A stretch of DNA of 63,879 bases, taken from positions 1 to 63,879 of the IMG/VR virus record IMGVR_UViG_3300037088_000377. One strand, written 5' to 3'. This DNA is from a virus (lineage: Duplodnaviria; Caudoviricetes). The notes under the pieces are model-generated. The model saw only the letters and a program-made list of their open reading frames with translations. It did no database searches and had not been told where the DNA came from. Made by a program: the position numbers and the translations under genes. Numbering within the stretch: position 1 is the first letter of the stretch; every line of letters starts with the position of its first letter. Below, in pieces: positions 4,230 to 38,271 of the stretch.

Positions 4230-4535
4230 TTACTCCTTAACGGTGGGCACAATCAAGCCAGCGGTGTCCCAACCAAGTTCTGTAAGCTTCCAGCCCGTGA
4301 TGCCATCCTGTGGTGACGGGGAACCCCGATAAAGCTTTTGGGTGATTAAGTTCTTATTGAATAAGGCACGGAAGGTGTCGTAGGACAAGCGCTTTCCGTC
4401 CATAATATAGTTGAGCTTAGCAGTCACTCGGTTTCCCAGTGAGCGGTAAGGGCTGTCCAAGGTAAGGTATTCGCACAAGTCTTCACCCTCGGAAAGCTTT
4501 TTCAGGACATGCTTTTGAGTTTTGGTTAACTTCAT
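4230..4535 (-). CDS. Hypothetical protein, possibly winged-helix
   Basis: MKLTKTQKHVLKKL...LFNKNLI...WKLTELG pattern. Confidence 0.55.
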   Translation of the reverse strand: MKLTKTQKHVLKKLSEGEDLCEYLTLDSPYRSLGNRVTAKLNYIMDGKRLSYDTFRALFNKNLITQKLYRGSPSPQDGITGWKLTELGWDTAGLIVPTVKE

Positions 4536-5065
4536 CACTTTCCTTTCCGGGACTTCTCCCATTGTTCTAATACCTTCTTTCGGATGCCTTTTGGCATCCT
4601 TTTTTTGTCGAAGAACATAATTCCAAAAGTGTGGTCCAACTCGTGGGAAGCACAGAAGGCGTCGTATCCGCTAAGTCGTACCGTCCAAGACTCACCCTTG
4701 AGCGGCTCTTGGTAGGTCAGATGGCATTCCGTCTGGCGGCTGACCATACCGTAGATATTGGGGAAGGACAAGCAGCCTTCCTGGTGGACTTGCCATTCGC
4801 CGAATGCCTCTACGGTGGGGTTGACGGCGATAATTTCTTCCCCATGATGGCCCCCCACCGACCGCCTCATAACAAAGAGCCTCTTCTCCAACCCGCATTG
4901 CGGAGCGGCGAGCCCTATGCCGTTCCCGTTTTTCATAGTCAATAACATCTGCTTGCCAAGGGTCTCTAGTCCTTCTCCAAATTCATCATCCTCCACTGGA
5001 GCACAGACGGTGGAAAGGATGGGGTCGTCCCAGATAGCGATTGTCAAAGGGGTTAACTCAGGCAA
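4535..5065 (-). CDS. def: Peptide deformylase
   Basis: All three PDF motifs: GIGLAAPQCG, EGCLS, HELDH. Probable TTG start after GGAGG. Confidence 0.92.
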   Translation of the reverse strand: MPELTPLTIAIWDDPILSTVCAPVEDDEFGEGLETLGKQMLLTMKNGNGIGLAAPQCGLEKRLFVMRRSVGGHHGEEIIAVNPTVEAFGEWQVHQEGCLSFPNIYGMVSRQTECHLTYQEPLKGESWTVRLSGYDAFCASHELDHTFGIMFFDKKRMPKGIRKKVLEQWEKSRKGK

Positions 5066-5537
5066 TTGGTCCTCCAGTAAGGCGCTCAACCTCTGACTTA
5101 TCAACGCCGTACCAGCCGACTCCGGCATAATAACGGTAGTATTCCTTTCCCGTTTTATGCTCTTCCTTGAACTCCACGATGGAGTAATCATCTTGGTTAG
5201 AACGGCTGGGATAGCTGTGGGCATCATAGTGCTCGACAAGGGTGCATGCCCGATTGGAAGAAGGACCAAATACATGTCCGAGACCAAACTTCTCCTCAAT
5301 GGCATCAGCGACCATCTCGGCTCCATTGGTGATGCTGCATCCCGGATTGTCTGCTATCTCTGTGACGATAAAGACTTTTCGGAGGTCCTGGTCGAAGTAG
5401 GCATCCAGATGGCAGGCGGCAATCTGCCGACCGTATCCTTTGTAGTTGAATCGCCCGGAAAACAGGCGGCTCATAGGTTCCTTGGCGGGAGTAATCTTGA
5501 GGTCTTCTAGGGTAATGGATTTCGGTGTAGTTTCCAT
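5058..5537 (-). CDS. Hypothetical protein
   Basis: 159 aa; preceded by the early-type promoter motif. Confidence 0.7.
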   Translation of the reverse strand: METTPKSITLEDLKITPAKEPMSRLFSGRFNYKGYGRQIAACHLDAYFDQDLRKVFIVTEIADNPGCSITNGAEMVADAIEEKFGLGHVFGPSSNRACTLVEHYDAHSYPSRSNQDDYSIVEFKEEHKTGKEYYRYYAGVGWYGVDKSEVERLTGGPIA

Positions 5538-11648: not shown

Positions 11649-12491
11649 ATGAGGTTTAGAGATTTAACTGGGCAAAAATTCGGAATGTTGACAGTCTTGG
11701 AGAGACTAGATAAAATTTCGCCTGTAACATGGGTATGCGAATGCTCATGTGGAAACAAACACAATGTTCGTATCGGCAATCTGACAACAGGCAGTGTCAG
11801 AAGCTGTGGGGAATGCCGACCGAAAATGGAGAAGGGCTTCGGTTCCAACAGGTATAAAGAAAGCAGGATTGCCAACTTATGTGGCTGTTGCCGAGTAAAT
11901 CTGAGTATCCTCGGAAAGACCTCTTGCGAGAGGTGCAAGACCAAGATTGAAAAGTTGCGGAAAGAGAGAAGGTCAAAAGGATACTGTGCATACTGTGATA
12001 GCCCTGTAATAAGCGGGCATTCTCGTTGCCAAAAACATTTTGACAGCCATACCACAGGAGAAAAAAGGCGAATGGTTGATTTAGATAAAGAGCATCTGTG
12101 CAGACTTTGCTCCAACCCTGTTTTGGCAAATAGCAGAAAGTACTGTCCTGTATGCATCTTAAATGTTAAAGAACGTCATAAGCAATGGTATATGAGTCTT
12201 AAACTCCAAGTGATTGCTGGTTATGGGGGTCGGTGCCAATGTCCGGGATGTGATGTAGCGATTCCCGAGTTTCTAACCCTTGACCATATTAACAATGACG
12301 GGGCGTTTCGTCGGAAGATGTTGGGAACCAAGGAAATTGGGGCTAACCTATATCAAAGATTGATTAAGGAACAGTTTCCTAAAGGAACTTACCAACTTCT
12401 TTGCTTTAACTGTAATCTATCCAAGGGTTTCTTTGGGAAATGCCCACATACGGAGCAAACCAACTGTATGGTAGCGGCAGGAGGAGCATAA
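11649..12491 (+). CDS. HNH homing endonuclease with Cys-rich repeats
   Basis: DLTGQKFGMLTV...WVCECSCG N-terminus, several CxxC units, and LTLDHINNDG...LLCFNCN. Confidence 0.85.
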   Translation: MRFRDLTGQKFGMLTVLERLDKISPVTWVCECSCGNKHNVRIGNLTTGSVRSCGECRPKMEKGFGSNRYKESRIANLCGCCRVNLSILGKTSCERCKTKIEKLRKERRSKGYCAYCDSPVISGHSRCQKHFDSHTTGEKRRMVDLDKEHLCRLCSNPVLANSRKYCPVCILNVKERHKQWYMSLKLQVIAGYGGRCQCPGCDVAIPEFLTLDHINNDGAFRRKMLGTKEIGANLYQRLIKEQFPKGTYQLLCFNCNLSKGFFGKCPHTEQTNCMVAAGGA

Positions 12492-12492
12492 A

Positions 12493-15400
12493 ATGCCTGT
12501 TAGCGGAAATTCAATTGCAGCCAAATCGTTCCAGAGTTTTGCGGTCAATGAGGACCTGCTAAGGAAGGTCACCGAAGCTACCATAAAAGGAGAGAAGAAA
12601 GCCCGCTCTTCTGGAGAGGTCGTCTCCTATGAAGCCTTTGTTACGGGGTTTCGTCAAAATATTTCAATTGGCAGAATCTTCATTGTCCCCGCCTCGATAT
12701 GTGACAAGCCCAAGGAGTTCCCCATTGCTCTTCTGTACGGGACGGTGGTAAAGCTGCTCAATCTTGGTGAGGAGACGGCGACCCTTATCGCCATCAATAC
12801 TGGAAGCGAGTTTGACGAGGAAGAGGATGTCAAGGAACATCTCAAGTCCCTCAAGGAAAAGGCATTCACCGTGGACGGCAAGGAGGTCAGTCTCGTTGTG
12901 TTTGCCCCGGCGTGGAGTGGCATCCGTGAGTATGTGACGTTCCAGTTCGTGGATGACACATACAAGCTCACCAACCTGCTCCGCCACTTGGTGTTCTCTT
13001 GCTATTTCAATCCGGCTGTGTCTAGTGGCTTTGATGCTTTGCTTAGTAAAGTCGATACGTGGAAAATAGATGTCACCGATATCACCCCCAAGCTGACCTA
13101 CCCGGCGCTCACGGAAAGCCCACTCAAGAAGTACCCGGAGCTTATGAAGACGGCCAGCAAGCGGGACCGCATCTTCCTCACCGCCAAGACCGCCGACGCC
13201 ATCGCCCAGAACGAGCTTGAACCCGAGGAGATGGACGTGTTCCAAGCATTGGGGGAAGCAATGGGTGGGGCGCTCGACCACGGGACCACCACATCCGGGG
13301 AGGTAGCTGACAAGGACTACAAGACCCCGGCAGCCAACGCCGAGGTACCCCGTGCTGACGATGGCACCGGACCCAAGGCGGCAAAGAAGGTCGGCTACGA
13401 TAAGGAAGACCAGTATACTCCAAACGTTATGCCCGGAACAGGGATGACCGATGACGAGATGCTGGCGCAGCAGCACGCTGACATTATGAGTAAGGCGACC
13501 TATACCCTCAGTGAGGACGACCTTGAGTGGACCCCCGAGTACCGTAACCGGGCGCACGGTCGAATTGGCTCCGCTAAAACCGCCTTCATTGCCGAAGCCC
13601 CGACAAACGACAGTTATGTGGTCAAACAGAACGGGCAAATCAAGACCGGCCCCTGTCCGATGATGGAGTGCTTGGACTGGATTATGGAAGAGCAGGAGAA
13701 TGGCATCGGTATGAGTAGGGGAGGATACGAGATAGAGGAGGCGGGACAAGAAAGTGCTGCTCCTGTTCCCATCACGGCATCTATGCGGAAGCGAGCAGGG
13801 ATTGACCCATTCCTTGCCTCCTATATTGAGTCAGCATTGTGGTCCAGTGATGATGAGTCTACGCCGCAGGGCGGGGAGCCGTTGGACAAGAACCACAGCC
13901 TCTTGGACATCGCCCCCGAGACTCTTGAGGTGATGAAGCAGGACTGCGAGCGGTTCAGGACAGAAAATGACCAACTTCTCCAGCAGGCAATCGAGCAGGA
14001 CAATGCAAGTTGGGGCATCATAGCCCGCGACTTTTGGCTTACCCGCAACCGTCACGGGGCGGGATTCTGGGACGGGGACTACCCGGCTACCGGAGATGCC
14101 CTCACCGAGGCAGCACACGCCTTCGGCGAGGCAGCCTTGTACATCGGGGATGACGGCAGGATATACCAGTACGAGGATGCTTACTCCGGTCCCAAGGTGA
14201 CGGGCGAGGATATTGGGAATACACCGGGAGGATTCAATAACCCGGACGAGGAGGGGTTGCCTGGAGAGATTGGTGGTCATATCGGCAGCAAGAAAAAGGC
14301 AGACACGGAAGTTGTCGGGACTCCTTATGTGGTACGGATTAATGGGCACAAAACTCTCAAGGGAGAACTTGCTGAATGGTGCATAAAAGATGAGAGCGGG
14401 AAGCTTCACTCAGCTCATGCCACTCAAAAATGGGCCAACAAAATTGTTTCTAACTACCTACTTTCCAAGCAGGCCGATACCGCCGACAACCCCGCCAATC
14501 AGACCAGGGACGGCGAGGGGGCGATGGACCCAAAGACCAACAAGGAGAAGTCTGTGACAGCAAATGTTGTGTTCCCCCTAAAGTCCCCCGATAAATGCGC
14601 AGTCTGCAAGGCAGACCTGCCTGCGGGGACAAAGGTTATCAACAAGTCACAGTGGGCTGTAGTTTGCCTTCCTTGTGTCAATAGGCTACGAGATCAGAAT
14701 AAAGCACCAAAATTGTCGGCTGTCGCCAAAGTCAAGAAAGCTATGCAACTATATGTCGGGATTGATCCTTACACGAATGAACGCTCCATAAGCCGCTTAG
14801 ACAGGGACTCTGAGGGTAACAGGAACTTTCAACCTGTCTCGCTGGAACAGCTTGACGAGATTCTGCCACAAGCCACTGATTTTTATGTCGGCTATAGGTC
14901 CGTTGATGCCGATACATTCAGGCAGCAGGCTCAAGAAATCATGTTAGCTAATACCAACAAGAACAAGCCCGTGACGGCCGCTATCGCCAAGGTCGCCTAT
15001 GTCTCCCACTGCAAGGGACACAAGAACTCCAAGGGGGAGCTTGCCGAGTGGTGCGTGAAGTCCCACAAGGACGACCACATCATCTCCAGCCACGGCAGCG
15101 AGGCGGCAGCCAAGAAGCACTTGCAGGATATGCATGCCCATTCCGGCTCAACCGAAAAGACCGCCTACAAGACCCATGACGCCGACTGCACCTGTGGGTT
15201 CTGCGAGAAGAAGGGCGACATCGCCGAGAAGGACAAGGAGAAGAATGATTTGACCAAGTACGGAAGTGCATATGGTTACAGCTTTGACGATGACCTTACC
15301 CCGGAGCAAAGAAGTTGCACGCAGGGCTGTTTTATCCGGGGCGAGCGTGAGTGCCCCGCTAGTTGCACTTGTTCGATTTGCCACGGCAGCGGCAGGAAGC

Positions 15401-17415
15401 AGAATGACATTGCTGACGACCGGAACATCATGGTAATCCGCAGAGCCAAGCATGCCGAAGGCGCTCCGTATCAATGCCTGAACTGCTTGAAGCAGCATAA
15501 CAATCCTGTTAGGTGTCCCAATTGTGGTAGCAGTGAGAAGAAGCGAATGGGGGTTGAGTATCCGAAGACCGCCGACACAGTGGACAACCCGGCGAACGAG
15601 AAGGGTGGAGTAGGCTACATTCACCCCAAGACCGACGCCGAGAAGGTGAACACCCGTGGGGAAGAGCCTGAGATGGCTCCCGACAAGAACCCCGGTGGGA
15701 GCAAGACCGGGACGGTATGGTTGAACGACAAGAACTTGAGACCTGCTATGTCCATGAACGACATCTTCGCTGAGACAAACCGTCTGTCCGCAAAAGAGCA
15801 GGGAGGAGTGGACTTGTCACACCACCGCAACCACGCCAGCCTCAAGACAGCAGACGCCCAGATGCACTGCCCACAGTGTCAGGGAACCGCCTGTAAGGCG
15901 AACCCCTCGGACCCGCAGTATGTGTGCCAGTGCGGGTGGAAGTCCGGCCAGCCGCTCCATACGATGAGTGAGGGAGAGAGGGAAAACGAACTCAGGACAC
16001 AGGAAAGGCTGCGGGGTTTCCGTCCGCATCGTGGCACCAAGACCGCCGCCGAGGTTGTGGCCGACCTCCTCGCCGACCCCACCGGGGAAGATAAGGGCAT
16101 GGTGGCATCCTTACAGAGCAGGAAGGCGGGCAACAAGCGTGAGGAAGACCTCCGCAAGAAGCGCTCCAGCGTGGCCGAGGAGTTCGGCGACATTTTTGCT
16201 GATGTTTTGCCCCGATATGGAAAGACCGCAGACCAGTCTGTCGAGCCGGACGTGGCACAGGCAAGGGGCGCAATCAGCGGTCCTGGCAAGAACGACCTTG
16301 CCAATACGCCGGAAGCAACCAACACCACTGATGCCCGTGACCTGGAGAAGCAGAAGCCCTCGCCGAACGCCGGGGGGGTGCCGAGGCTCTCATCTAAGAA
16401 AAGGGGTGACCATGATGTCCAGCCCGACATCGCCGCCGCACGGGAGAGGCTTGACCACGGTGCCAAGGCACAGCTTGCCGACAACCCGGAGGCTACACAG
16501 ACCGAGGATATTGGCAAGTTCGCAGGCAAGATGGCTGACCAGTCCGTCGAGCCAGATGTAGCCCAAGCCAAGGCGGCCATCGAAGGTCAGTCCAAGGCAC
16601 AGCTTGCCGACAACCCGGAGGCTACACAGACCACGGACATCCGTGAGCTTGAGAAGCAAGCGGCATATCCTGAAGCACAGCCTACTTCTGAGCAGGTGGA
16701 CGTGGAGGTCAAGGACGAGGGTTCACTAATCCTCCTGATTCCCAAAAACTCGGAGGCAAAGCAGTGGATGAACGATAATCTCGGGCTGGAAGAGTGGCAA
16801 TGGTACGGCGGCGGGGCAGCAATTGAGTACCGCTATGCTGATGACATCATTGAGGGGATGCAGAATGACGGACTGACTGTGACCCCGACCAAGCGCATCA
16901 TCCCCGAGGAGCATGACCTTACCCCAGAGGACGAGCAGCGACTCATCAGTAAAGGTATCGTAGCACCTCCCGGCAAGCGTGCCTGTACTCCATTGGGCGA
17001 CGAGCAGGATGAAGCAATCGACATCGGGGCGCTCATCGGTGACCTTGCCGACCTCGGTGCCAACCTGCCCAATATCGCAGGAGGGACTATGGATGCCCCA
17101 CAGGTCGGGGAGGGTGGAATAAATAACTTGTCAGCCAAGAAGGAATCCTCTCGGAAGCAGGCGGCTTCTCCCGAGGCACTGATGCTTGCCCAAGAGCTTA
17201 TTGACAACGAGGACCCGCTTGTCTTCGATATTTGTTCCAACCATGGACAGATATTCGGGAATGTGCGGCACATGCGGTGGCTGCTTGAGGCTGTGGCGGA
17301 GGAGGCTGAAGCTGAGCATATGGTAGGAGACGAGGAGTCTATCTCTCCTGAACGGGATAGATTAGCCCTTGACGTGGATCCTGATACTTACTTGCCACCG
17401 TTTGAGGAGTTCTAA
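12493..17415 (+). CDS. Large modular putative virion protein or polyprotein with about 20 K-x-A/G sites
   Basis: 1640 aa; AGGAGG RBS; recurring KTAD, KKAD, KQAD, KVAY and KTAY boundaries; duplicated modules; Zn fingers. Confidence 0.7.
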   Translation: MPVSGNSIAAKSFQSFAVNEDLLRKVTEATIKGEKKARSSGEVVSYEAFVTGFRQNISIGRIFIVPASICDKPKEFPIALLYGTVVKLLNLGEETATLIAINTGSEFDEEEDVKEHLKSLKEKAFTVDGKEVSLVVFAPAWSGIREYVTFQFVDDTYKLTNLLRHLVFSCYFNPAVSSGFDALLSKVDTWKIDVTDITPKLTYPALTESPLKKYPELMKTASKRDRIFLTAKTADAIAQNELEPEEMDVFQALGEAMGGALDHGTTTSGEVADKDYKTPAANAEVPRADDGTGPKAAKKVGYDKEDQYTPNVMPGTGMTDDEMLAQQHADIMSKATYTLSEDDLEWTPEYRNRAHGRIGSAKTAFIAEAPTNDSYVVKQNGQIKTGPCPMMECLDWIMEEQENGIGMSRGGYEIEEAGQESAAPVPITASMRKRAGIDPFLASYIESALWSSDDESTPQGGEPLDKNHSLLDIAPETLEVMKQDCERFRTENDQLLQQAIEQDNASWGIIARDFWLTRNRHGAGFWDGDYPATGDALTEAAHAFGEAALYIGDDGRIYQYEDAYSGPKVTGEDIGNTPGGFNNPDEEGLPGEIGGHIGSKKKADTEVVGTPYVVRINGHKTLKGELAEWCIKDESGKLHSAHATQKWANKIVSNYLLSKQADTADNPANQTRDGEGAMDPKTNKEKSVTANVVFPLKSPDKCAVCKADLPAGTKVINKSQWAVVCLPCVNRLRDQNKAPKLSAVAKVKKAMQLYVGIDPYTNERSISRLDRDSEGNRNFQPVSLEQLDEILPQATDFYVGYRSVDADTFRQQAQEIMLANTNKNKPVTAAIAKVAYVSHCKGHKNSKGELAEWCVKSHKDDHIISSHGSEAAAKKHLQDMHAHSGSTEKTAYKTHDADCTCGFCEKKGDIAEKDKEKNDLTKYGSAYGYSFDDDLTPEQRSCTQGCFIRGERECPASCTCSICHGSGRKQNDIADDRNIMVIRRAKHAEGAPYQCLNCLKQHNNPVRCPNCGSSEKKRMGVEYPKTADTVDNPANEKGGVGYIHPKTDAEKVNTRGEEPEMAPDKNPGGSKTGTVWLNDKNLRPAMSMNDIFAETNRLSAKEQGGVDLSHHRNHASLKTADAQMHCPQCQGTACKANPSDPQYVCQCGWKSGQPLHTMSEGERENELRTQERLRGFRPHRGTKTAAEVVADLLADPTGEDKGMVASLQSRKAGNKREEDLRKKRSSVAEEFGDIFADVLPRYGKTADQSVEPDVAQARGAISGPGKNDLANTPEATNTTDARDLEKQKPSPNAGGVPRLSSKKRGDHDVQPDIAAARERLDHGAKAQLADNPEATQTEDIGKFAGKMADQSVEPDVAQAKAAIEGQSKAQLADNPEATQTTDIRELEKQAAYPEAQPTSEQVDVEVKDEGSLILLIPKNSEAKQWMNDNLGLEEWQWYGGGAAIEYRYADDIIEGMQNDGLTVTPTKRIIPEEHDLTPEDEQRLISKGIVAPPGKRACTPLGDEQDEAIDIGALIGDLADLGANLPNIAGGTMDAPQVGEGGINNLSAKKESSRKQAASPEALMLAQELIDNEDPLVFDICSNHGQIFGNVRHMRWLLEAVAEEAEAEHMVGDEESISPERDRLALDVDPDTYLPPFEEF
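16463..16632 (+). repeat. 41-bp exact direct repeat inside the 1640-aa gene
   Basis: CCAAGGCACAGCTTGCCGACAACCCGGAGGCTACACAGACC at 16463-16503 and 16592-16632, encoding KAQLADNPEATQT. Confidence 0.9.
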
Positions 17416-19607
17416 TGGGCTACGATAACTATCGGGATTGGCAGACCTTCGAAGTGCATATCCTTATGGGGAACGAGCGGAAATCCTATGAGCTGAAGAG
17501 GAAAATTGTCCAGCAAGCCTTGGCGATGGGCAAGTCGGACGATGTCACATATCAGATAGTGGCCAAGGAATTTGCCAAGCAGTTTCGCAAGCTGAGGGAC
17601 CAAGTAAAAGTAGAGTTTGACGAGAGTCTTAACGACACGATAACAGAGCGGGGAGAGTTTGAGGCTCGGCAGATAGAGGGAAAGAAGCCGACGCCCAGCG
17701 AATTTGGTCATAATGGCGATGTCCTCAACGAAGTCATGGATATGATTCGTAGCGATATGGGAAGCGGACTCTTGCCAAGGTGGGAAGAGCCTGACTGGCT
17801 GGAGCTTGCCGAGTGTGAGGTAGAGCAGGAGAAGCTGGAGAGGTCATCAGCGAAGGCAGTAATGCAAATGAAACAACAGCCCGGAGAGGATGTTGAGCTT
17901 CCTCCCGATATGACAGAGGGGCTAAAAGCAATGGGAATCAGGGGTTCCAAGGAGACAGTCATGACGAAGGTAGCGTTTGTCCTCAAGGGTCATAAATTCG
18001 TGTCATCTCTCCCGTCCGCAAAGGCGGCGGGAAGGTTCATCAAGGCGGCCAACGACAAATGGGGCAAGGAATTTAAGGTCGGGGGCATGGGGACGGACCA
18101 GGAATCCGAGCTGGTGACCTCCGGTGTCAACGTCCTTGATGCGGCCGTCGTGCCCGAGCACTTGGAAGACACCAAGTTTGCCGCAGGCGGGGGTGATACC
18201 TTCCAAGGGGCTTATATCGTGATGCAGCAGGACGCCTACAAACACCTGCAGGTCAGGGCGACCCCACAGGGAAGGCGTGAGGCCGAGACCCTAGCGGGCG
18301 AACCTACTGACAACGCCTTGGCGAGCCTGCTTGAGGATGCCACAGGCAATGGTTGGGAATGGAAGACACCCGAGGAGCTTGGGGCATTGACCTCCGCCCC
18401 CATCCTTGCCAGCCCGGCAGGCAATGTTTACTGGCACGAGCGATACCAAGTGGACGACCCTATCGAGATGCTGGCCAAGGGGGGAATGGTGCAGTTCAAC
18501 TATGCAGGGAACTTGAATGAGACCGAGGAAGTCCCGGTAGAGGGCAAGGCACCCGAGGCAGCAATCGGGGGAGGAATCATGGCATCGGCAAAGGCAAAAA
18601 TTGGAAAGAAGATGAAGAGCTTTGACTTCTTCTTCCCCCGACAGGTCTTACGAGAGTTTTATCCCAAGATACGGTTGGGTGCCTTCAACTTTTCCCCGGC
18701 GCACGTGCAGGGTCAGGTCGCCAGGGAATTCACGGACGAGATACCGGGAAACACCGTTGACAAGGTCAACCCCAATATCGGCGGATTCGGAAACGAGGAC
18801 AACCACCCGATGCTCAACCCCGAAATATCCGGGGATATGCACACCATAGCCGCCCTTGAAGACCTGTTCGACAACCTGACGAAGCTCAGCTACGTCAGTA
18901 CCTCTCCCGCAGGCGCAGCCGGGCTGGGCAGGGACTTCAAGCCTCAGACCCTCGAAGGACAGGCTTTCCGTTCCCCGGACGACGCACGTGGGGGCATGTT
19001 CGGGGAGGAGTTCTACCAGAACTATGGCATGGGACCGGACGGGGACGCCCTCAGTCACCTTGCTGCGATGATGGACGAGGATAAGCACGAGACTTGCGGG
19101 AAGTGCGGCCAGTGCATACACTGCGGTACCTGCCACTGCCCGGAGCCACAGCGTACCGGAAAGTTCGGGGAAAACAAGGAGGCACACCGGAAGCTGGCCG
19201 GGATGGGTAATGCCAAGGAGCAGTTCGGCACGTTCCTGAAGATGGTGATGATGGAGATTGCAACTACTCTCCTATCAGCATGGAAGGTAACAAATCGTCC
19301 CCCTTTGAACAAGATTCCGGGGACTGGGGAAGTTCAGCTTGACCAGATAGAGCAACAGCAGTACCAAGGTATTTCCAGCTTAAGCCTTACTGTCACGAAG
19401 AGCCAAGTGAAGTATCTTGTAGAAAAGCTAAACGATGGGGACCTTCAGGAAGTTCTCAACGATAGTTGGGCTCAGGCGGCTGCTTGGTGTGGTAGCCCTA
19501 ACGGGGGTGGGGTGCGGGAGGTATTCGTAAGGGCAGAAACACTTGACTCCGAGTCTCTCAGGCTCGTCTACAAGTTCGTGACTGGTACTCGTGACTCGGC
19601 GGCATAA
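17415..19607 (+). CDS. Large modular putative head-associated protein
   Basis: 730 aa; TAATG coupling; TKVAF, TKFAA, TKLSY and RKLAG motifs; CGKCGQCIHCGTCHC cluster. Confidence 0.65.
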   Translation: MGYDNYRDWQTFEVHILMGNERKSYELKRKIVQQALAMGKSDDVTYQIVAKEFAKQFRKLRDQVKVEFDESLNDTITERGEFEARQIEGKKPTPSEFGHNGDVLNEVMDMIRSDMGSGLLPRWEEPDWLELAECEVEQEKLERSSAKAVMQMKQQPGEDVELPPDMTEGLKAMGIRGSKETVMTKVAFVLKGHKFVSSLPSAKAAGRFIKAANDKWGKEFKVGGMGTDQESELVTSGVNVLDAAVVPEHLEDTKFAAGGGDTFQGAYIVMQQDAYKHLQVRATPQGRREAETLAGEPTDNALASLLEDATGNGWEWKTPEELGALTSAPILASPAGNVYWHERYQVDDPIEMLAKGGMVQFNYAGNLNETEEVPVEGKAPEAAIGGGIMASAKAKIGKKMKSFDFFFPRQVLREFYPKIRLGAFNFSPAHVQGQVAREFTDEIPGNTVDKVNPNIGGFGNEDNHPMLNPEISGDMHTIAALEDLFDNLTKLSYVSTSPAGAAGLGRDFKPQTLEGQAFRSPDDARGGMFGEEFYQNYGMGPDGDALSHLAAMMDEDKHETCGKCGQCIHCGTCHCPEPQRTGKFGENKEAHRKLAGMGNAKEQFGTFLKMVMMEIATTLLSAWKVTNRPPLNKIPGTGEVQLDQIEQQQYQGISSLSLTVTKSQVKYLVEKLNDGDLQEVLNDSWAQAAAWCGSPNGGGVREVFVRAETLDSESLRLVYKFVTGTRDSAA

Positions 19608-27650: not shown

Positions 27651-29423
27651 CTAGCGGTTGGCGCGTGAGACAAACAAAGATTCAAATGACGGCTCGTCTA
27701 TCTTGACGATGAAGCTCCCGAGGATATCTGGGTCGGTTCTGTAAAGGTGCCCCTCTTTCATCATCTTTCGCTTGGAGTACCCCGACCCAATGGGGGATGA
27801 CTTATCCACCAAGCTGTGAATCCACGCCGCCATAGCCGCTTCTCTGCTGTCCTTGGACCCCATCAACGCCCGTGCCGCCCGACTCATTCCCCGGCGCACA
27901 TCCGGCCTGTGCAGCCCGAGGACATCCGCCACCTGCTGGAACGACCTGTACTTTGAATACTCGATAATAGCCCTGGACAAACCTCCTTTGAGAGAGTCCT
28001 CCAGCCCCGCCTTGGTCAGTACTTGCGACAAGACCTCAACAGTAGGCTCTCCGAAGAGCAGGAAAGCGCCAATGACCCGGATGGCCATACGGATGCGGAA
28101 TGAGCATACCGTCTGGGTAGATTTGAAGATGGTGGCCAGCGTGGTTTGGGTGTTGTGGGTGGGAATCATACTCTTACCACATAAATAAAGGTGGGAGGGG
28201 GAATCCACGGTGAGACAACGCATCAGCTTGGGTGCAACCTTAGTTACCTTATTGATATGATGGCTAAGCGAATCTCCCTTAAGATTTAACCGTTTTTGTC
28301 TGGCTAACTTTCTCGGTAAGCGAAAACACGGGACGGTAGTGGTAAACGCTGTTCCCCATCCATCGGAGTAACGCTTTTCCCCTTTGTAAATGCAATAGCT
28401 CCGCTTGGGTCTGAATTGATGTTTGATGCCTAATGACCATAGTAGTTCGTCAATTCCTCCTATGATGGCGGGCGAACAGTTTGTAAATGAGCATGTACCC
28501 AACTTAGTACATGAGCCATCTGTGTCCATTAGACCTTGGAGTAGAGCTAACCTTTGGCGTGCGGAGGCACGTAAGTATATTGACGGGATATGCTTGTTCT
28601 TTATAACTCCGAGCTTCTTTAGGGAAGACCAGAGACCCAAGATATGCCAACGCTGTGGGTCTTTGTCACTCTGATACCACTTATACCCAGCAGCCGAAAA
28701 ATGAGACAGTATTTCTTTGACATCTTCAGCGCTTCCTGTCAGGATGCCGCAATCGCTGTTTCCATCCCCAAGCCAAGCTCCAAGACAATATGGGTCCACA
28801 AGCAGGGGTTGGTCCGGCAATTCCAACTCATGCGTAAGGGCAATATGGTGATTCGCCAGGTATTTACCCTGTCTTGAACTTGCACAGTAGCGTTGTGTTT
28901 CGTATATCTCCTGTGTGGTACGGACAGTTTTGTCTAAACGGTACACATTTCTATGCTTGGCATTTTGACGGTCATTGTAGGTTGTCGTAAGCCAAAGATG
29001 GTCGTTCCCTGCATAGAGTTTTTCTCCAGTGTCCAATTCAATTTCATAAGTTATATCGGGGTAGCAAGTCGGATGAGCTTTCAATACACGAGTCGGCAGT
29101 CCGTTATCGTCAAGCACCAAGTCCCCGTCTACAATGTCCCCGTTACGTTTCCATCCATCAGGGGTGGGTATCGGGGTATCAACATCCAATAACTTTCCCA
29201 AGAGATAATAGGATAAAAGTATATCCTGGTCCTCCTGGCTGAGGTACTTGAGCATCTTCAGGAACCCTGTAAAGTTCTCCTGGATGTAGGTGAAGATGTC
29301 ATCCTCTTGGAGGTCCCGCTGAGTCTCCAAACTTATCGTTGTAGCCCCCTCCAGCGCCTCCTCTTCGCTTAACAGGAGAGACCTAGCACTGGTAATTGAG
29401 GTCATATACGGGGTTTGCTCCAA
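27651..29423 (-). CDS. Tandem sigma70-region-4-like HTH protein interrupted by an intein
   Basis: Joined exteins read LSQEDQDILLSYYLLGK|TQTTLATIFKSTQTVCSFRIRMA; a second HTH reads SFQQVADVLGLHRPDVRRGMSRA. Confidence 0.7.
   Translation of the reverse strand: MEQTPYMTSITSARSLLLSEEEALEGATTISLETQRDLQEDDIFTYIQENFTGFLKMLKYLSQEDQDILLSYYLLGKLLDVDTPIPTPDGWKRNGDIVDGDLVLDDNGLPTRVLKAHPTCYPDITYEIELDTGEKLYAGNDHLWLTTTYNDRQNAKHRNVYRLDKTVRTTQEIYETQRYCASSRQGKYLANHHIALTHELELPDQPLLVDPYCLGAWLGDGNSDCGILTGSAEDVKEILSHFSAAGYKWYQSDKDPQRWHILGLWSSLKKLGVIKNKHIPSIYLRASARQRLALLQGLMDTDGSCTKLGTCSFTNCSPAIIGGIDELLWSLGIKHQFRPKRSYCIYKGEKRYSDGWGTAFTTTVPCFRLPRKLARQKRLNLKGDSLSHHINKVTKVAPKLMRCLTVDSPSHLYLCGKSMIPTHNTQTTLATIFKSTQTVCSFRIRMAIRVIGAFLLFGEPTVEVLSQVLTKAGLEDSLKGGLSRAIIEYSKYRSFQQVADVLGLHRPDVRRGMSRAARALMGSKDSREAAMAAWIHSLVDKSSPIGSGYSKRKMMKEGHLYRTDPDILGSFIVKIDEPSFESLFVSRANR
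28152..29192 (-). mobile_element. Class 3-type intein with LAGLIDADG endonuclease (347 aa)
   Basis: Starts LLDVDTPIPTPDGW; DHLW, MRCLTVD, PTHN/T; LGAWLGDG and LLQGLMDTDG. Confidence 0.88.
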
Positions 29424-29610: not shown

Positions 29611-29639
29611 AAAGGGCGGGGGACTGGCCCCCGCCCTTT
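29611..29639 (-). terminator. Rho-independent terminator, possibly bidirectional
   Basis: AAAGGGCGGGGG-ACTGG-CCCCCGCCCTTT perfect stem at the end of the GIY-YIG gene. Confidence 0.75.
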
Positions 29640-30576
29640 AGCCGTGAGTGATAGGGGGTTCTGTTGGCGGCAAGTGGCGACCTTCTCTTATTGCGGCTAC
29701 CCGCTTGACCCGTATCTCAGGATTAGCCCACGATTTCCTCATAGCCTCTACCCATTTGGCGTGCCGCTCGGGGTAAGCCATCGCCTTCTCACGGGCTTCC
29801 AATAGGTTGGTGCGGCATTCTGAAGACTGTGAGGCTTTCAAAACTGCTGAACGATAATCTTCATCCTTCCACTTATCCTTTATTGACTCAGATAGTTTAG
29901 AACGAACTTCTGGTGACTGCATAGCTTTTGTATGTTTAATGCAGTACTCGGGGTTGGAAAGGGCTTCTCGAAGTGCTTTAATTTTTTTAGCACGGATTTC
30001 AGGATTAGACCAACTACGCTTGGTAACTTTACTAAGTTTAGCACGGACCATAGGGTCGGCGTTCGCCGACGCCTGCGCTGCCATTATCTTAGAACGAAAC
30101 TTAATATTAGCCCAATTCCTTCTACTTAAAATGCTTCTTTTTTCATGATATTCTGGATTAAGAAGTGCCTTTTTCATAGACTCTGCGTGTCGAATACGAA
30201 ATTGAGGGTCTTTCCACATCTGCTTGCTATGGATAGCCATTTTCTGACGAGTTTCAAGACCAAGGGGTCCGGTACGTCCTTCTCCACCCCGACAAATGTT
30301 ATAACCATACTCAGGGTCCTGTGACCGCAGGAATTTGATAAATTCCCGCTCGGTCTCATCAAGCTCTTTACGAGTTTGGATATCGGAGCAGAGGGCATGA
30401 ATGGACCACAAAGAAGATTGTGGGTACTTTCGCATTGAATTAAAAAGGTGGGAACTGCCTGTTTTATGTCGGGCAGAGGACATCTTCTGTTGAAGGTAAT
30501 GCTGAAGATTTTTTCCTTTGTGCTGCCCGACATAGTACTTACCGGTTTCGTGGTTAACGATGAGATAGATAAACAT
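29638..30576 (-). CDS. GIY-YIG homing endonuclease with W-x-[ND]-P-E helical repeats
   Basis: MFIYLIVNHETGKYYVGQ...YGYNICRGGEG, followed by repeats WKDPQ, WSNPE, WANPE. Confidence 0.88.
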   Translation of the reverse strand: MFIYLIVNHETGKYYVGQHKGKNLQHYLQQKMSSARHKTGSSHLFNSMRKYPQSSLWSIHALCSDIQTRKELDETEREFIKFLRSQDPEYGYNICRGGEGRTGPLGLETRQKMAIHSKQMWKDPQFRIRHAESMKKALLNPEYHEKRSILSRRNWANIKFRSKIMAAQASANADPMVRAKLSKVTKRSWSNPEIRAKKIKALREALSNPEYCIKHTKAMQSPEVRSKLSESIKDKWKDEDYRSAVLKASQSSECRTNLLEAREKAMAYPERHAKWVEAMRKSWANPEIRVKRVAAIREGRHLPPTEPPITHG

Positions 30577-32008: not shown

Positions 32009-32160
32009 CCGCCCGTATTCCTGGGGTAGACTTCTCTCCATTTGTGTGTCTCCAATCATCCGATGTTCAGGAAGAAACGCCCTGACTTGGCGCAACGAAA
32101 TAGAGCTAGAGGAGAGGAAAATTATAAGAGGAAAAACGAATAATGATGACATCAACCTTA

Positions 32161-32826
32161 ATGCCCGCCTCCCCCTTAGTTTCATGCTTAACTCCAACTT
32201 ACAATCGGCGTGATTTCTGGCCGAAATGTATCCAATGTTTCCTTTCGCAGGACTACACCAATTTAGAATGGGTAATTGTTGATAATAGTGAAACCCCCAT
32301 CAAGGACCTCCTCCCCGCCGACCCCCGCATCCGGTATGTCCGGCACCCCGGAGAACGCCTGTCCCACGGGAACCTCATGAACCTGTGCATGGGATGCTCC
32401 ACGGGCGCTCTGGCGTGCGTTCTTGACGATGACGACTGGTATGCCCCGGACAGGGTCAGGAAGCAGGTTCAACCACTCATAGATAATCCCGCAAAGGACA
32501 TCGTAGGGACGAGTCGGCTATTTTATTACGTCTTAGGAACCCAGAAGGCATTTCGGTATGTCAACCAGACTCACCAGAAGTGGCTGGCCGCACCCGCTTG
32601 GAGGCGGTCGGCTTGGGAGAACAACAAGTTTGACAACCTCACACGTGGGGCGGACACAAACTTTATGAACCGGATTCCTAAGAATCGCTGGGTGGACTTG
32701 GAGGATGAGCGGCTGATAGCAAGCACGATACATCCCGGAAATGCATCGCCAAAAAGGCTGCTTCCGCCTTCTTTTGTAGGAGTACCTTGGGCAAGCGTGG
32801 AAGAAATCACGAAAGGAACACTGTAG
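32161..32826 (+). CDS. Glycosyltransferase family 2
   Basis: VSCLTPTYNR, VIVDNS, LDDDDWY, GAD. Confidence 0.88.
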   Translation: MPASPLVSCLTPTYNRRDFWPKCIQCFLSQDYTNLEWVIVDNSETPIKDLLPADPRIRYVRHPGERLSHGNLMNLCMGCSTGALACVLDDDDWYAPDRVRKQVQPLIDNPAKDIVGTSRLFYYVLGTQKAFRYVNQTHQKWLAAPAWRRSAWENNKFDNLTRGADTNFMNRIPKNRWVDLEDERLIASTIHPGNASPKRLLPPSFVGVPWASVEEITKGTL

Positions 32827-32840
32827 AGTAGGAGAACAAC

Positions 32841-33815
32841 ATGAAAAAGGCACTCGTCTGTGGAGCAGGGGGCTTCATTGGTGGTCACCTGATAAAGAGG
32901 TTGAAACGAGAGGGTTATTGGGTTCGTGGCGTGGATATCAAGGAGCATGAATTTTGTCCGACCGCTGCAGACACATTCTTTCGTCTTGACCTTCGAGATA
33001 AATATAGTTGTCACGCTGCACTCAGCTTAGACACGGAGAAGTTTGATGAGGTCTATCAGTTGGCCGCCGATATGGGTGGGATGGGCTTCATACATTCTGC
33101 TGAGTGTGAAATCATGCATAACAATGCACTGATAAACATTCATATGACGCAGGCAGCGGCGACAATGGGCATCTCTCGGTACTTCTTCTCTTCGTCTGTC
33201 TGCGTCTACCGTGATATGATATTCGGAGAGCCGGAAATGATGGAAACAGAGGCCACTCCCGCCAATCCGGACAATGAGTATGGGTGGGAAAAACTCTATT
33301 CTGAGCGTGTGGCAATGGCATACGAGCGCCGCTATGGGGTGCAGGTGCGTATCGCCCGCTTCCAGAACTGCTATGGTGCGGAGGGTACTTGGCGTGGGGG
33401 GCGGGAAAAGGCTCCTGCGGCCATCTGTCGCAAGGTGGCTGAGGCTGCGGATGGGGATACGATTGAGGTTTGGGGTGACGGAACCGCTGTGCGCTCATAC
33501 ACACACGTCAACGATATGGTTGACGGCATTTTTAGGCTTATGCATTCCGACTTGCACGGAGCTGCCAATATCGGGTGCCCGCAGTATGCGACAGTGAATG
33601 AACTGGTGGCTACGGTTGCCGATGTAGCCGGTAAGAAAATCTGTATTACACACATCAACGGTCCGGTCGGTGTTCAATCCCGTAACTTCAGCAATGCCCG
33701 CATCTACTCAACGGGTTGGAAACCCAAGATATTCCTTAAAGAGGGCATCCAACTAACCTACCCTTGGATTGAGACCCAAGTCAAAGCGGCTGAGACCGTA
33801 AAAGGAACCCTATGA
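32841..33815 (+). CDS. NAD-dependent epimerase, GDP-mannose 3',5'-epimerase-like
   Basis: GAGGFIG, LAADMGGMGFI, YGWEK and GGREKAPAAICRK, a GME-type signature. Confidence 0.85.
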   Translation: MKKALVCGAGGFIGGHLIKRLKREGYWVRGVDIKEHEFCPTAADTFFRLDLRDKYSCHAALSLDTEKFDEVYQLAADMGGMGFIHSAECEIMHNNALINIHMTQAAATMGISRYFFSSSVCVYRDMIFGEPEMMETEATPANPDNEYGWEKLYSERVAMAYERRYGVQVRIARFQNCYGAEGTWRGGREKAPAAICRKVAEAADGDTIEVWGDGTAVRSYTHVNDMVDGIFRLMHSDLHGAANIGCPQYATVNELVATVADVAGKKICITHINGPVGVQSRNFSNARIYSTGWKPKIFLKEGIQLTYPWIETQVKAAETVKGTL

Positions 33816-34450
33816 GTAATCCCCGCCTGCTCATCGCCATCACCAGTTGTCATAAACACAGGGAGTGGCAATTTGCACAAAGGCAAACATGGGTACGGGA
33901 CATACCCCACGGGGTATCCTATCGGTTCTTCCTCGGCAACCCCATCGTTCAGGATGCTTTGGAAGACGAGGTCTTCTTGGACGCCCCGGACGACTACTCG
34001 TTAATACCCGTTAAGATGAAGGGTATCTTCCAGTGGGCATTGGATCAAGGGTTTAACTTTGCCTTCAAGGTGGACATTGACACCTTGGTAAATGTCCAAA
34101 ACCTTTTGGATAGTGGGTTCGACAAGCATGATTATGTCGGCGGTCTTTATAGCCAAGGGGTCGCTACCCCGTTCGCCAGCGGAGGGTCGGGATTCATGCT
34201 GAGTGAGAAGGCGATGCGTCTCGTAGTAGAGGAGCCTGTAAGAGATGACGGGTATGACGACGTGCTTGTGGCTTTGGCGATGAAGAGAGGCAATATTCCT
34301 TTGCATGCCGACAGCAGGTATAGGTTTTCCCCCGGATACACGATGGACGGGAAAGGTATCTCCTATCATCTTAGCTCCATCTCTAAATGGAAGGAGAGTT
34401 ACTTCCCAACAGTGATGTTTGAGAAATACTTGGAGATGAAAAGGCTATGA
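33812..34450 (+). CDS. GT31/Fringe-like glycosyltransferase
   Basis: RQTW, DDY...K, FKVDIDT, SGGSGFMLS, DDV. Confidence 0.75.
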   Translation: MSNPRLLIAITSCHKHREWQFAQRQTWVRDIPHGVSYRFFLGNPIVQDALEDEVFLDAPDDYSLIPVKMKGIFQWALDQGFNFAFKVDIDTLVNVQNLLDSGFDKHDYVGGLYSQGVATPFASGGSGFMLSEKAMRLVVEEPVRDDGYDDVLVALAMKRGNIPLHADSRYRFSPGYTMDGKGISYHLSSISKWKESYFPTVMFEKYLEMKRL

Positions 34451-35229
34451 GCTTATCGAGCGGCTTTACATTAGAACAGGAAAGAAGACAAGAGGAGCTT
34501 CAATCAATGTTCCAGAACGCCCGCCGTGGGATGAACTTCGGGATGGGTGGCGGGTTTGAGTCTAGCGGAGAATATCAAGCGATTCAAAAAATAAGAGGTG
34601 AATTGCTGAAAAAGTATTGTGAGCCCTATATTTTGTTTGATGTGGGAGCTAACGAAGGGGAATACACCCGGTTTTTATCGAACATCTTTGCTGGCGAGGC
34701 GGTAATTCACGCTTTTGAGCCATCGTTAGGTACCTTTGAGGTCCTGCGGCAGCGGCTTGGCGAGGCGGCTGAGCTTCACCGGCTAGCCTTCGGGGAACAA
34801 AGTGGTTTCGCTTTGCTATACTCAAATAGTAACTCCGGGCTTTCGTCTTTCTATAACCGCAATCTTAAACATTTTGGGATAGTGTTGGACAAGACGGAGA
34901 GTATTTCTGTACTGACACTCGACGAATTTTGTCAAACGATGGGCATCCAGCATATCCACTTTCTGAAGATGGATGTTGAAGGACATGAGCTTCAGGTTCT
35001 CAAGGGAGCTAAGAAGATTCTGGAGCAACGGGGGGTTGACTTCATCCAGTTTGAGTTTGGTGGATGCAATATCGACTCAAGGACCTTCTTCCAAGACTTT
35101 TTCTATCTGCTCTCTCCTCAATATCGCCTCTTCCGAGTCCTGGCAGACGGCTTGTGGCCGGTAGAGTCTTACAGGGAGTCGGAGGAATTTTTTGACGGTC
35201 CGACTAATTACATGTGTGAACTTATATGA
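34447..35229 (+). CDS. FkbM-family SAM methyltransferase
   Basis: FDVGANEG, HAFEP, LKMDVEGHE. Confidence 0.9.
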   Translation: MSLSSGFTLEQERRQEELQSMFQNARRGMNFGMGGGFESSGEYQAIQKIRGELLKKYCEPYILFDVGANEGEYTRFLSNIFAGEAVIHAFEPSLGTFEVLRQRLGEAAELHRLAFGEQSGFALLYSNSNSGLSSFYNRNLKHFGIVLDKTESISVLTLDEFCQTMGIQHIHFLKMDVEGHELQVLKGAKKILEQRGVDFIQFEFGGCNIDSRTFFQDFFYLLSPQYRLFRVLADGLWPVESYRESEEFFDGPTNYMCELI

Positions 35230-35242
35230 AAAAGAAAATTCT

Positions 35243-36061
35243 ATGATAGTGCGTCTTAAAGGGGGACTCGGCAACCAGATGTTCCAGTATGCCTTCGGGA
35301 GGTCAGTGTCGCTGGCAAAGAAGGAGGACCTGTTCTTCACCCGTGATTACTGTGACTCCGACCCCAAGAGGTGCTACGCTTTGGGGGTCTTCGATGTCCC
35401 AATAAAATTTGTGTCGGAACCTAAAAACCCTGTATACCACGAATCCCCCTTTTCCTTTAATCCACAAGTCTATACGATGCCAAAAAACGTGCTGTTTGAG
35501 GGGTACTGGTTTACAGAGAAGTACTTCAATAGGCCTATTATAAGAGTTTGTTTTTCTCCCCGTACTATGAGCGACAAATCCCAAGCGGTGGCGGAAGAGA
35601 TTATCTCTCTTGATGAGAAGAGCGCCTTCCTGCATATCCGTAGAACAGACTTCACAACGCTATCAGAATACCATACGAACCTGACGATGAATTACTATGC
35701 CGCCGCCATGAAGCTTATCTGCCAGAAGGTTCCGAACGCCAAATTCTTCGTCTTCTCCGACGACCCTGAATGGTGCAAGGTGGCTTTTCCCTCCGAGTTT
35801 ACGGTTGTGGCTCACAATAAGCCGGGCGGCAGGATGTTCGGCTCTGACCAGTCAGGCACGGAGCACGAGGATTTGTGGTTGATGAGCCTGTGCCGTCATG
35901 CCGTCATCGCTAATAGCTCATTTTCATGGTGGGGTGCTTGGCTGGGGGACGAGCAGGAAAACAGGATTGTGGTGGGTCCAAAGCGGTGGTTCGGTCCCGC
36001 CCTTGCTGGCTTGGATACCGGGGACATCACCCCTGAGAGATGGATAAAGGTGGGATACTGA
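35243..36061 (+). CDS. GT11 alpha-1,2-fucosyltransferase-like protein
   Basis: GGLGNQMFQY, HIRRTD, FSDD, IANSSFSWWGAWL. Confidence 0.9.
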   Translation: MIVRLKGGLGNQMFQYAFGRSVSLAKKEDLFFTRDYCDSDPKRCYALGVFDVPIKFVSEPKNPVYHESPFSFNPQVYTMPKNVLFEGYWFTEKYFNRPIIRVCFSPRTMSDKSQAVAEEIISLDEKSAFLHIRRTDFTTLSEYHTNLTMNYYAAAMKLICQKVPNAKFFVFSDDPEWCKVAFPSEFTVVAHNKPGGRMFGSDQSGTEHEDLWLMSLCRHAVIANSSFSWWGAWLGDEQENRIVVGPKRWFGPALAGLDTGDITPERWIKVGY

Positions 36062-36064
36062 ACA

Positions 36065-37356: not shown

Positions 37357-37374
37357 GGAAGACTCAAAAAGCGT

Positions 37375-38247: not shown

Positions 38248-38271
38248 GGAAACTGAAAAGGTAAAACACTT

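Follow-up and report, generated by a model that had tools for sequence, protein, structure and literature searches.

Exchangeable modules joined at K-x-A sites in a predicted head-cargo polyprotein of jumbo phages related to Tunturi_5

Head cargo jointed by protease sites is already established for phages T4, phiKZ and SPN3US. According to the available part of one study (PMC10052503), the SPN3US prohead protease cuts the major capsid protein (MCP), the portal, the ejection proteins and itself at A-x-E, as determined by mass spectrometry, and in phiKZ, 201phi2-1 and SPN3US long regions are cut several times and the cargo is ejected with the DNA. Here we describe a locus in an IMG/VR viral contig (record IMGVR_UViG_3300037088_000377, 63,879 nucleotides or 63.9 kb), which represents an estimated 35% of a genome and is called the window below. 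Its gene of interest is P0001 (12493..17415, + strand), an open reading frame (ORF) that is open over 1640 aa and in which a conserved N-terminal domain (N-domain) is followed by an array of small cassettes joined at K-x-A sites. In our proposal, P0001 and the following ORF, P0005, make up a cassette polyprotein that is incorporated into the prohead, where a head protease of the phrog_18299 family cuts it at K-x-A; we would give this explanation an even chance.

The locus resembles the phiKZ, 201phi2-1 and SPN3US systems (protease gp175 or gp245), as far as the available text describes them, in that one short motif recurs at many sites in the MCP, the portal, the ejection proteins and the protease, here as a prediction from sequence. 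The A/S/G-x-E sites of those phages are cut after Glu, whereas the K-x-A sites described here are presumably cut after Ala. Mostly one N-terminal propeptide is lost there, whereas about 20 exchangeable modules lie here between conserved end domains, and our candidate protease belongs to a family (phrog_18299) without a Pfam model. In T4, small cargo such as IPI-III and Alt is loaded via an N-terminal tag that is removed by gp21, and the stand-alone GHK proteins discussed below, with a leader ending in K-x-A, look similar. T4 uses an L/I-x-E motif and separate cargo genes. Unlike in T4, the cargo is here mostly concatenated in one to three giant genes, and the only conserved N-terminal element is a domain of about 215 aa instead of a 10-residue tag.

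Polyvalent proteins are another class to be compared. In the part of the account by Iyer et al. (2017, PMC5512222) that is available to us, they are described as carrying many unrelated domains per polypeptide, evolving as mosaics and being sometimes released by a peptidase, with co-delivery with the DNA predicted. With about 22 joints and 23 pieces, and with distinct PHROG or Pfam modules in its orthologs, P0001 falls within their range of 2 to at least 15 distinct domains per phage polypeptide. Pfam scans of P0001, 32 orthologs, P0005, the upstream partner P0003 and gp350, the homolog in the only cultured relative (Tunturi_5, a 309-kb myovirus), detected none of the polyvalent hallmark domains (zincin-like MPTase, ART-PolyVal, SNF2 helicase, methylase, ParB, LPD). 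Unlike polyvalent proteins, these chains carry no embedded peptidase that could be found, and their modules are mostly 40-170 aa long and without family assignment. The published description, in the portion at hand (PMC5512222), mentions no uniform junction motif. In a related 317-kb record rated 99% complete (G001), two separate proteins (L032:845-2491 and L033:6888-7721, both on the - strand) carry ART-PolyVal and InPase domains, which are typical of polyvalent proteins; the L032 protein is mildly K-x-A-rich (7 vs 2.8) and adjoins a 3027-aa ORF.

Table S3 of the Tunturi_5 paper (PMC11924767), the part of that source used here, labels gp350 as P1 DarB-like antirestriction protein via a Phold structural match to phrog_10089. 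A resemblance to DarB exists in that both are large, possibly capsid-borne myovirus proteins. Profile hidden Markov model (HMM) scans against PHROGs gave no match to phrog_10089, either for P0001 (E up to 0.1) or for gp350 and P0005 (E up to 1e-5), Pfam scans of P0001 and its orthologs gave none of the methyltransferase or helicase domains expected of DarB, and the phrog_10089 match in G001 is a different protein of 278 aa. At the level of sequence comparison, the label is not borne out. A non-exhaustive search of open-access papers and preprints found no description of a K-x-A head-protease code or of this protein family.

The original prediction, made from the letters of the window alone, read P0001 as a string of modules separated by K-x-[AG] sites and listed 21 of these, every one of which is present. 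Motif frequencies in P0001 were compared with 2000 shuffles per pattern. Neither the 24 K-x-A sites (shuffle mean 12.3) nor the eight Lys-Thr-Ala (KTA) sites (mean 0.75) were reached by any shuffle (0/2000 in both cases), while the loose K-x-[AG] pattern is weakly enriched (33 seen, mean 21.5, reached by 9/2000 shuffles). The remaining 65 ORFs of the window (16,622 aa) contain 68 K-x-A for 65.8 expected, a ratio of 1.03, and no KTA. The motif is thus about twofold enriched in P0001 and close to 1.0 in the other ORFs, so that its frequency does not equal background and the enrichment anticipated from the sequence is found. For the 348 ORFs of G001 the K-x-A ratio is 1.06, and the most enriched ORFs are the P0003 homolog, which ranks first (14 vs 5.9), the polyprotein (27 vs 15.3) and the portal (12 vs 5.8).

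A search with the N-terminal 230 residues retrieved 36 long orthologs of P0001 (986-2249 aa), which are 40-100% identical in the N-domain. For the family statistics, P0001 and P0008-P0042 were pooled (36 proteins, 40,716 aa past the N-domain), with P0007 excluded as near-identical. KTA is the most enriched tripeptide of this pool (159 vs 21.9) and K.A the top gapped pair (746 vs 407.5, z 16.8). Among cluster representatives of at least 600 aa, K.A is found 639 times vs 324 expected in 41 nearer members and 239 vs 132 in 25 distant ones. No Glu-ending motif, the form of the T4- and phiKZ-type cleavage sites (L/I-x-E, A/S/G-x-E), is among the top enriched patterns of the pooled family. Joints are mostly of the form K-x-A, less often K-x-G, K-x-S or V-T-A; the V-T-A form is found at two joints of P0001 (aa 688-690 and 827-829). 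Ser or Ala is preferred just upstream of the site Lys. The codons at 23 sites match the usage of the gene itself and the middle codon is variable, which indicates that the constraint on the sites acts on the protein and not on the DNA.

Module turnover was followed by global alignment of all 630 pairs among the 36 proteins, considering clean insertions of at least 25 aa and counting a boundary when it lies within 2 residues of a site. For the 99 distinct clean insertions, K-x-[AGS] is found at 45 starts and 42 ends, where 13.6 are expected for each, and at both ends of 25 insertions vs 1.9 expected. Control patterns gave 14 starts and 4 ends for E.[AG] (9.2 expected), 5 and 2 for R.[AG] (3.9 expected) and 2 and 4 for K.[LV] (3.9 expected). 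In comparison with P0008 or P0009, boundaries of insertions or deletions fall on ten K-x-A and two V-T-A joints of P0001. Gain and loss of modules at the motif, which the original prediction had put forward as something to look for in orthologs, is therefore seen in the family.

Splitting P0001 at the 22 joints yields 23 pieces of 13-221 aa, which are of two classes, namely conserved, repeated acidic peptides and variable, small folded modules. Peptides of the ADTADNPAN type occur in 35 copies in 22 of the 36 proteins, with K-x-[AGS] directly before all 35; those of the DQSVEPD type occur in 32 copies in 18 proteins, with the motif before 28 of them. The duplications quoted at the outset could be confirmed: DT[AV]DNPAN is present twice in P0001, the DQSVEPD/DHDVQPD unit three times and the GHK..KGELAEWC module twice. 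The near-identical P0007 lacks exactly one 43-aa acidic repeat (P0001 aa 1325-1367), which shows that the copy number changes by unequal recombination within the repeats.

The same motif stands at maturation-type positions in head proteins of the relatives. Table S3 of the Tunturi_5 paper lists gp331 as head maturation protease (phrog_18299) and gp334 as major head protein (phrog_2522) (PMC11924767, as far as this table goes). Family phrog_18299 is present in 7 of 10 related records (Tunturi_5, G002, G003, G004, G005, G006 and G008) and was not found in the window, G001 and G007; the phrog_2522 MCP family was found in Tunturi_5, G002 and G003. Gene order in Tunturi_5 and G002-G005 is a large ORF, the protease, a scaffold-position protein, a gp333-like protein and the MCP. 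The MCP starts with ...LLK[TS]A|[GA]GRQKLA|A in 5/5 genomes. The five proteases inspected contain 28 K-x-A vs 9.5 expected, with conserved sites at aa 5-8, around aa 33 and close to the C-terminus, where one genome has M-T-A or A-T-A instead, and invariant His and Ser residues are present among the candidate proteases. All four portals (4/4) share three K-x-[AG] sites, which border a variable N-terminal stretch, a low-complexity insert and the conserved core. K-x-A counts in scaffold-position proteins (observed/expected) are 16/5.6, 23/11.5, 21/11.5 and 18/10.4. Tunturi_5 gp328, annotated as 'DNA ejection protein' and encoded in the head/tail cluster between the tail sheath and the head protease, contains 19 K-x-A vs 8.8. 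The large ORF directly before the protease (948-1650 aa) in G004 (L057:1147-4260), G005, G002 and G003 is K-x-A-rich (13 vs 4.6 in G002), carries zinc ribbons as well as a TPR segment and probably represents a further head polyprotein that undergoes processing.

Five records (the window as a 35% fragment, three near-complete relatives and Tunturi_5) were scanned for Pfam peptidases. Peptidase_S78 (PF04586) had 0 matches in the five records and was matched in 4 control genomes; ClpP and S49 had none in the five records and were matched in control genomes; Peptidase_S77 (PF03420) matched neither the five records nor any of 14 control genomes. The phrog_18299 protease itself has no Pfam match and no PDB sequence match. 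The initial analogy with a T4 gp21-like protease needs correction, as the candidate, whose gene lies outside the window, belongs to the phrog_18299 family and is not of a recognisable T4 gp21 or HK97 type. The more general link to a head protease has gained circumstantial support (the motif is kept at the MCP N-terminus, the protease ends and the portal borders of relatives). A Lon-like processing protease was dropped: the phrog_4871 'ATP-dependent protease' of G001 is a ClpB/ClpX-type AAA+ module without peptidase domain, and ClpP and S49 are absent. This AAA+ protein (L031:5860-6876, + strand) consists of AAA_2 and ClpB_D2-small, and G001 yielded no ClpP partner for it.

Among the relatives with a phrog_18299 gene, G004 is nearest to the window; it is 77% identical in the N-domain and carries the same polyprotein as G001. 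At the end of the window, an ORF at 62839-63378 (- strand) matches Tunturi_5 gp335 (over window positions 63190-63375), the gene just after the MCP, and the ORFs next to it (P0045, 'APYPNRIQL...') match G004 genes downstream of its MCP. With the gene order of G004, this suggests that the genes for protease, scaffold and MCP are probably to be found as a block shortly after base 63879.

Several modules also exist outside the array, in agreement with the earlier expectation of stand-alone homologs; this holds for the phrog_1915 and GHK modules and, in orthologs, for phrog_22197, phrog_8738 and phrog_6353. Of 149 phage records matching P0001, 148 match the phrog_1915 module only, mostly as small hypothetical genes. 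The GHK module makes up complete proteins of 65 and 67 aa (P0068, P0069) and also stands at the N-terminus of others. K-x-[AS] stands directly before it in 9/20 fetched matches, and in five of these it ends a leader of 6-11 residues. P0052, a separate protein of 276 aa in another phage, begins with the VKDEG module of P0001. A homolog of P0052 in the window is P0006 (53978-55201, - strand, 407 aa), which is rich in Lys, Glu and Ala, scaffold-like and contains 8 K-x-A vs 4.0 expected; this relationship indicates that modules move between different putative head proteins. Tunturi_5 gp328 shares three modules with P0001 or P0005, one of them being the last module of P0001. Among the domains carried by the orthologs are an Xre/MbcA/ParS antitoxin-type toxin-binding domain (in P0017), a WGR domain, a DnaJ-type zinc finger and many zinc ribbons.

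In the mechanism that we propose, the precursor would be built into the prohead, where the head maturation protease of the phrog_18299 family would cut after the Ala of K-x-A and release about 20 small pieces, that is zinc ribbons, mini-domains and acidic peptides. The folded modules would remain with the DNA, pass into the host and act there at an early stage, the acidic peptides may act as core or spacer material, and new cargo would be gained by insertion of a small gene between two joints. More tentatively, and as a possibility that we hold well short of an even chance, the N-domain, the C-terminal domain (C-domain) of P0005 and the K-x-A code could constitute a plug-and-play delivery platform. 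The products of inserted small genes would be translated as part of the chain, taken into the capsid through the end domains, freed by the head protease and injected with the DNA. The array could then be a fast-evolving set of anti-defence effectors for the first minutes of infection, for example the Xre/MbcA/ParS domain of P0017, and the code would extend to the P0003 and gp328 families and to the large ORF that precedes the protease.

A number of observations weigh against the proposed processing in the prohead. Most insertion boundaries are off the motif (54/99 starts and 57/99 ends), and the inverse pattern [AG].K is also found at boundaries (27 starts and 21 ends vs 8.9 expected). The latter score suggests that the real site probably extends over more than three residues, and it fits the preference for Ser or Ala upstream of the Lys. 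Not every K-x-[AG] is a joint, as had first been supposed: K384 (KTG) and some others sit within segments conserved among orthologs. P0005 is barely enriched (K-x-A 6 vs 4.4 expected), and its junction before the C-domain reads K-M-K-S, with K-I-G five residues upstream, instead of K-x-A-G. The scaffold-position protein of G004 shows no enrichment (12 vs 10.8). The window has no protease or MCP gene, and G001 has neither, BLAST with the Tunturi_5 head proteins giving no homologs there, which we assume to mean that the contig is truncated within the head module. The protease is labelled as such on the basis of the PHROG name, the Phold call in the Tunturi_5 paper and the gene order. No assignable fold was found for the N-domain or the C-domain. 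Finally, what is observed comprises the motif, its location at module borders, the module turnover and its recurrence at maturation-type positions of head proteins in relatives; cleavage, protease identity, packaging and delivery are inferred.

The protein could also be loaded into the prohead and cut at K-x-A to give pieces that serve as scaffolding or core filler and then leave the head or stay inert, without delivered effectors. The most conserved pieces are indeed the repeated acidic peptides, which are probably unstructured, and the scaffold-position proteins beside the protease have the same composition and site density. The core proteins of T4 are likewise cut into small acidic internal peptides. 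We consider this explanation unlikely, because rapidly exchanged folded mini-domains are unusual in scaffolds, because the modules include the Xre/MbcA/ParS antitoxin-type domain, the WGR domain and many zinc ribbons, and because several of them are stand-alone phage genes outside head modules. The 99 distinct insertions among 36 orthologs likewise suggest diversifying cargo and not a fixed structural role.

Still less likely, in our opinion, is an uncleaved polyvalent protein, that is one large multidomain chain in which K-x-A would be a preferred linker or hinge, or a microhomology footprint of cassette shuffling. No protease was found embedded in the chain by domain scans of P0001 and its orthologs, and phage polyvalent proteins are often delivered unprocessed, as exemplified by the N4 virion RNA polymerase and ArdC in the part of the literature at hand (PMC5512222). 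The nine bases AAG ACC GCC, shared by 5/8 KTA sites of P0001, could serve as microhomology. However, the sites differ in their middle residue and in their codons, which are used as in the gene background, and the same motif is conserved at the MCP N-terminus, the protease ends and the portal borders, where no cassettes are swapped. The stand-alone GHK proteins moreover keep a leader of 6-11 residues ending in K-x-A, which would be useless as a linker. The least probable explanation is a cytoplasmic polyprotein, cut at K-x-A in the infected cell by a host or another phage protease with nothing packaged: the locus lies beside the large terminase gene and not within the head gene cluster, the head maturation protease of Tunturi_5 is about 27 kb away and no capsid-binding feature could be shown for either end domain, but in the full genome of the relative only the polyprotein genes, the portal and the P0003 homolog are enriched (other ORFs 1.06), the motif at the termini of MCP, portal and protease points to a head protease, and no ClpP, S49 or S78 peptidase was found in the five records.

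The conserved N-domain of P0001 (aa 1-218, 12493..13146; this and the features of P0001 below are on the + strand) shares 53-77% identity with its counterparts in 15 related viral loci and 39% with Tunturi_5 gp350. Directly after it comes the first joint, K219-T-A221 (13147..13155), with K-x-[AGS] at this column in 15/16 aligned loci and also in distant members. Joint K433-R-A435 (13789..13797) opens the phrog_1915 module (aa 436-603, DPFLASY...GHGAGFWD, 13798..14301), which is the single PHROG domain in P0001 (HMM scan with E up to 0.1; aa 434-558, E 3.3e-25, profile positions 6-139 of 141), so that the PHROG match begins at aa 434. Joint K601-K-A603 (14293..14301) bounds an insertion of 53-58 aa with respect to P0008 and P0009. 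It is followed by the first copy of the GHK..KGELAEWC module (aa 604-661, 14302..14475), which ends in joint K659-Q-A661 and is missing in P0008 and P0009, and by the acidic peptide ADTADNPAN... (aa 662-690, 14476..14562), whose V-T-A end is an insertion boundary. The second GHK copy (aa 836-891, 14998..15165), with P0068 and P0069 as its stand-alone counterparts, is flanked by joints K833-V-A and K889-T-A.

Further along the array, a zinc-ribbon module with a weak Zn_ribbon_9 match (aa 989-1027, 15457..15573) lies between K986-H-A and K1025-T-A and is missing in P0008. Another (aa 1121-1185, 15853..16047) lies between K1118-T-A and K1183-T-A, and P0008 has a 91-aa insertion right after the K-T-A at 1185, as it has one of 87 aa right after joint K1244-T-A1246 (16222..16230). 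Three acidic repeats DQSVEPDVAQA... then follow (aa 1247-1390, 16231..16662), each opened by K-x-[AG]. The VKDEGSLILLIP module (aa 1391-1497, 16663..16983), flanked by K1388-Q-A and K1495-R-A, is missing as a block in P0008, P0009 and P0012. The last module (aa 1558-1640, 17164..17412) is opened by K1555-Q-A and is the one also present within Tunturi_5 gp328. A Pfam scan of P0001 found no family above threshold, a zinc ribbon alone being seen below it.

The original prediction took P0001 alone as the unit. The unit in fact continues past 17415, since P0005 (17415..19607, + strand), whose start shares one base with the stop of P0001, holds further modules and the conserved C-domain. Tunturi_5 gp350 (1080 aa) matches both the N-domain of P0001 (E 3e-53) and the C-domain of P0005 (E 2e-40), and the two halves are likewise fused in one protein in P0036, P0041 and P0042; P0001 and P0005 are therefore regarded as two halves of one unit. 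A programmed frameshift joining them was considered and dropped: in the junction ...TTC TAA TGG... the stop codon and the ATG share one base, which we read as ordinary coupling. A second ORF directly follows the N-domain ORF in 8/11 other distinct related loci, with variable overlap or spacing; a gap or an extra ORF lies between them in L014 and L021, and both are fused in L017/L018. In L004 (10001-15844, on the contig of G007), and also in L003, the polyprotein is broken after 624 aa by a 316-aa ORF and resumes as a 1048-aa ORF, which is a mobile-element insertion within the array.

Upstream of P0001 lies P0003 (9333..11081, + strand), a conserved partner that is itself modular and K-x-A-rich (10 vs 5.1 expected), with relatives of 497-1046 aa. 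The idea that P0003 is the portal was dropped, as the portal is another gene (Tunturi_5 gp7; 853 aa in G001). P0004 (11078..11647, + strand; gp349 in Tunturi_5) is a conserved partner of about 170-190 aa that is syntenic in 16/20 related loci listed, the exceptions being L005, L006, L016 and L021. Between P0004 and P0001 is an HNH homing-endonuclease gene (11649..12491, + strand; phrog_374, E 8e-14), which we place outside the system and which is missing at that position in several relatives. The gene order in 20 related viral loci is a protein of about 110 aa, the P0003 homolog, the P0004 homolog of about 170 aa, sometimes a homing endonuclease, the N-domain polyprotein and the second polyprotein with the C-domain. 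The Tunturi_5 unit adjoins the large terminase gene, directly upstream.

The family resides in soil jumbo phages related to the Tunturiibacter phage Tunturi_5, and its general layout is a conserved N-domain of about 215 aa, a hypervariable cassette array and a conserved C-domain. An N-domain profile run against 1.84 billion cluster representatives matched 105 clusters; the domain starts within the first ~27 residues, except for some short or cut matches that cover only its later part. The C-domain (18603..19604, + strand, ...KYKFVTGT) is 45-59% identical in 11 loci, and K-x-A-G precedes it in 11/12 loci. The AlphaFold2 (AF2) model of the N-domain has a predicted local distance difference test score (pLDDT) of 57 and a predicted template modelling score of 0.61, and its best structural match, YkuJ (Z 8.8), is at background level. 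That of the C-domain has a pLDDT of 50; only the last ~130 residues fold, the best match has Z 4.8 and a BFVD search gave none. An ESM Atlas look-up of the N-domain gave no usable match, and sequence searches of solved structures with P0001, P0005 and the N-domain, C-domain and protease profiles returned nothing meaningful. Because neither fold is assignable, roles of the end domains as capsid anchor, in targeting or in the core are guesses.

Two identities of the end domains were nevertheless considered and dropped. The N-domain as a prohead protease is disfavoured by an AF2 model without protease-like match and by P0042, where the candidate His165 is Gln and Ser45 is Thr. The C-domain as an HK97-fold MCP, with the gene as a protease-scaffold-MCP fusion, is disfavoured by the low best match and by the true MCP (phrog_2522) being elsewhere in relatives. 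That MCP and protease genes are both found elsewhere argues against such a fusion, and the models, though of low confidence, gave no match of this kind.

The window has traits of a jumbo phage: two terminase-like ORFs, many GIY-YIG and HNH homing endonucleases, methyltransferases and glycosyltransferases. Both terminase ORFs (27651-29423 and 43103-46210, - strand) match the large-terminase family phrog_36964 (E 1.6e-46 and 1.2e-32) and may represent a duplicated or split terminase; GIY-YIG homing-endonuclease genes lie near them at 29638-30576 and 40904-41839. P0046 (59522-62320, - strand, 932 aa) has a SWIM-like Cys/His motif, a weak PHROG match and, by eye, an intein-like insert from about '...ICKHC|LSPGSKV' to '...VVHN|C'. 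Auxiliary genes encode a peptide deformylase (4535-5326, - strand), a cysteine-dioxygenase-like protein (2460-2882, - strand) and, in a cluster at 32143-38883 (+ strand), a sugar epimerase, methyltransferases and two glycosyltransferases.

Relative to the established systems, what is new here is the K-x-A code, a protease family without curated model, conserved end domains around a cassette array that extends over one or two genes, with an unusually clean cassette layout, and a module pool common to several polyprotein genes. If our explanation is correct, K-x-A with a cut after Ala would be a new head-protease specificity, of a family without Pfam model, and the cultured member Tunturi_5 on Tunturiibacter makes this prediction directly testable. 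It would also correct the 'DarB-like' label that is spreading from the Tunturi_5 record. As a rule for annotation, it would break up over 100 giant proteins now called 'hypothetical' and give hundreds of small ones that are candidates for an early role. Finally, it would provide a route for stand-alone small genes into and out of a capsid-delivered array, which would bear on the sets of proteins that jumbo phages inject.

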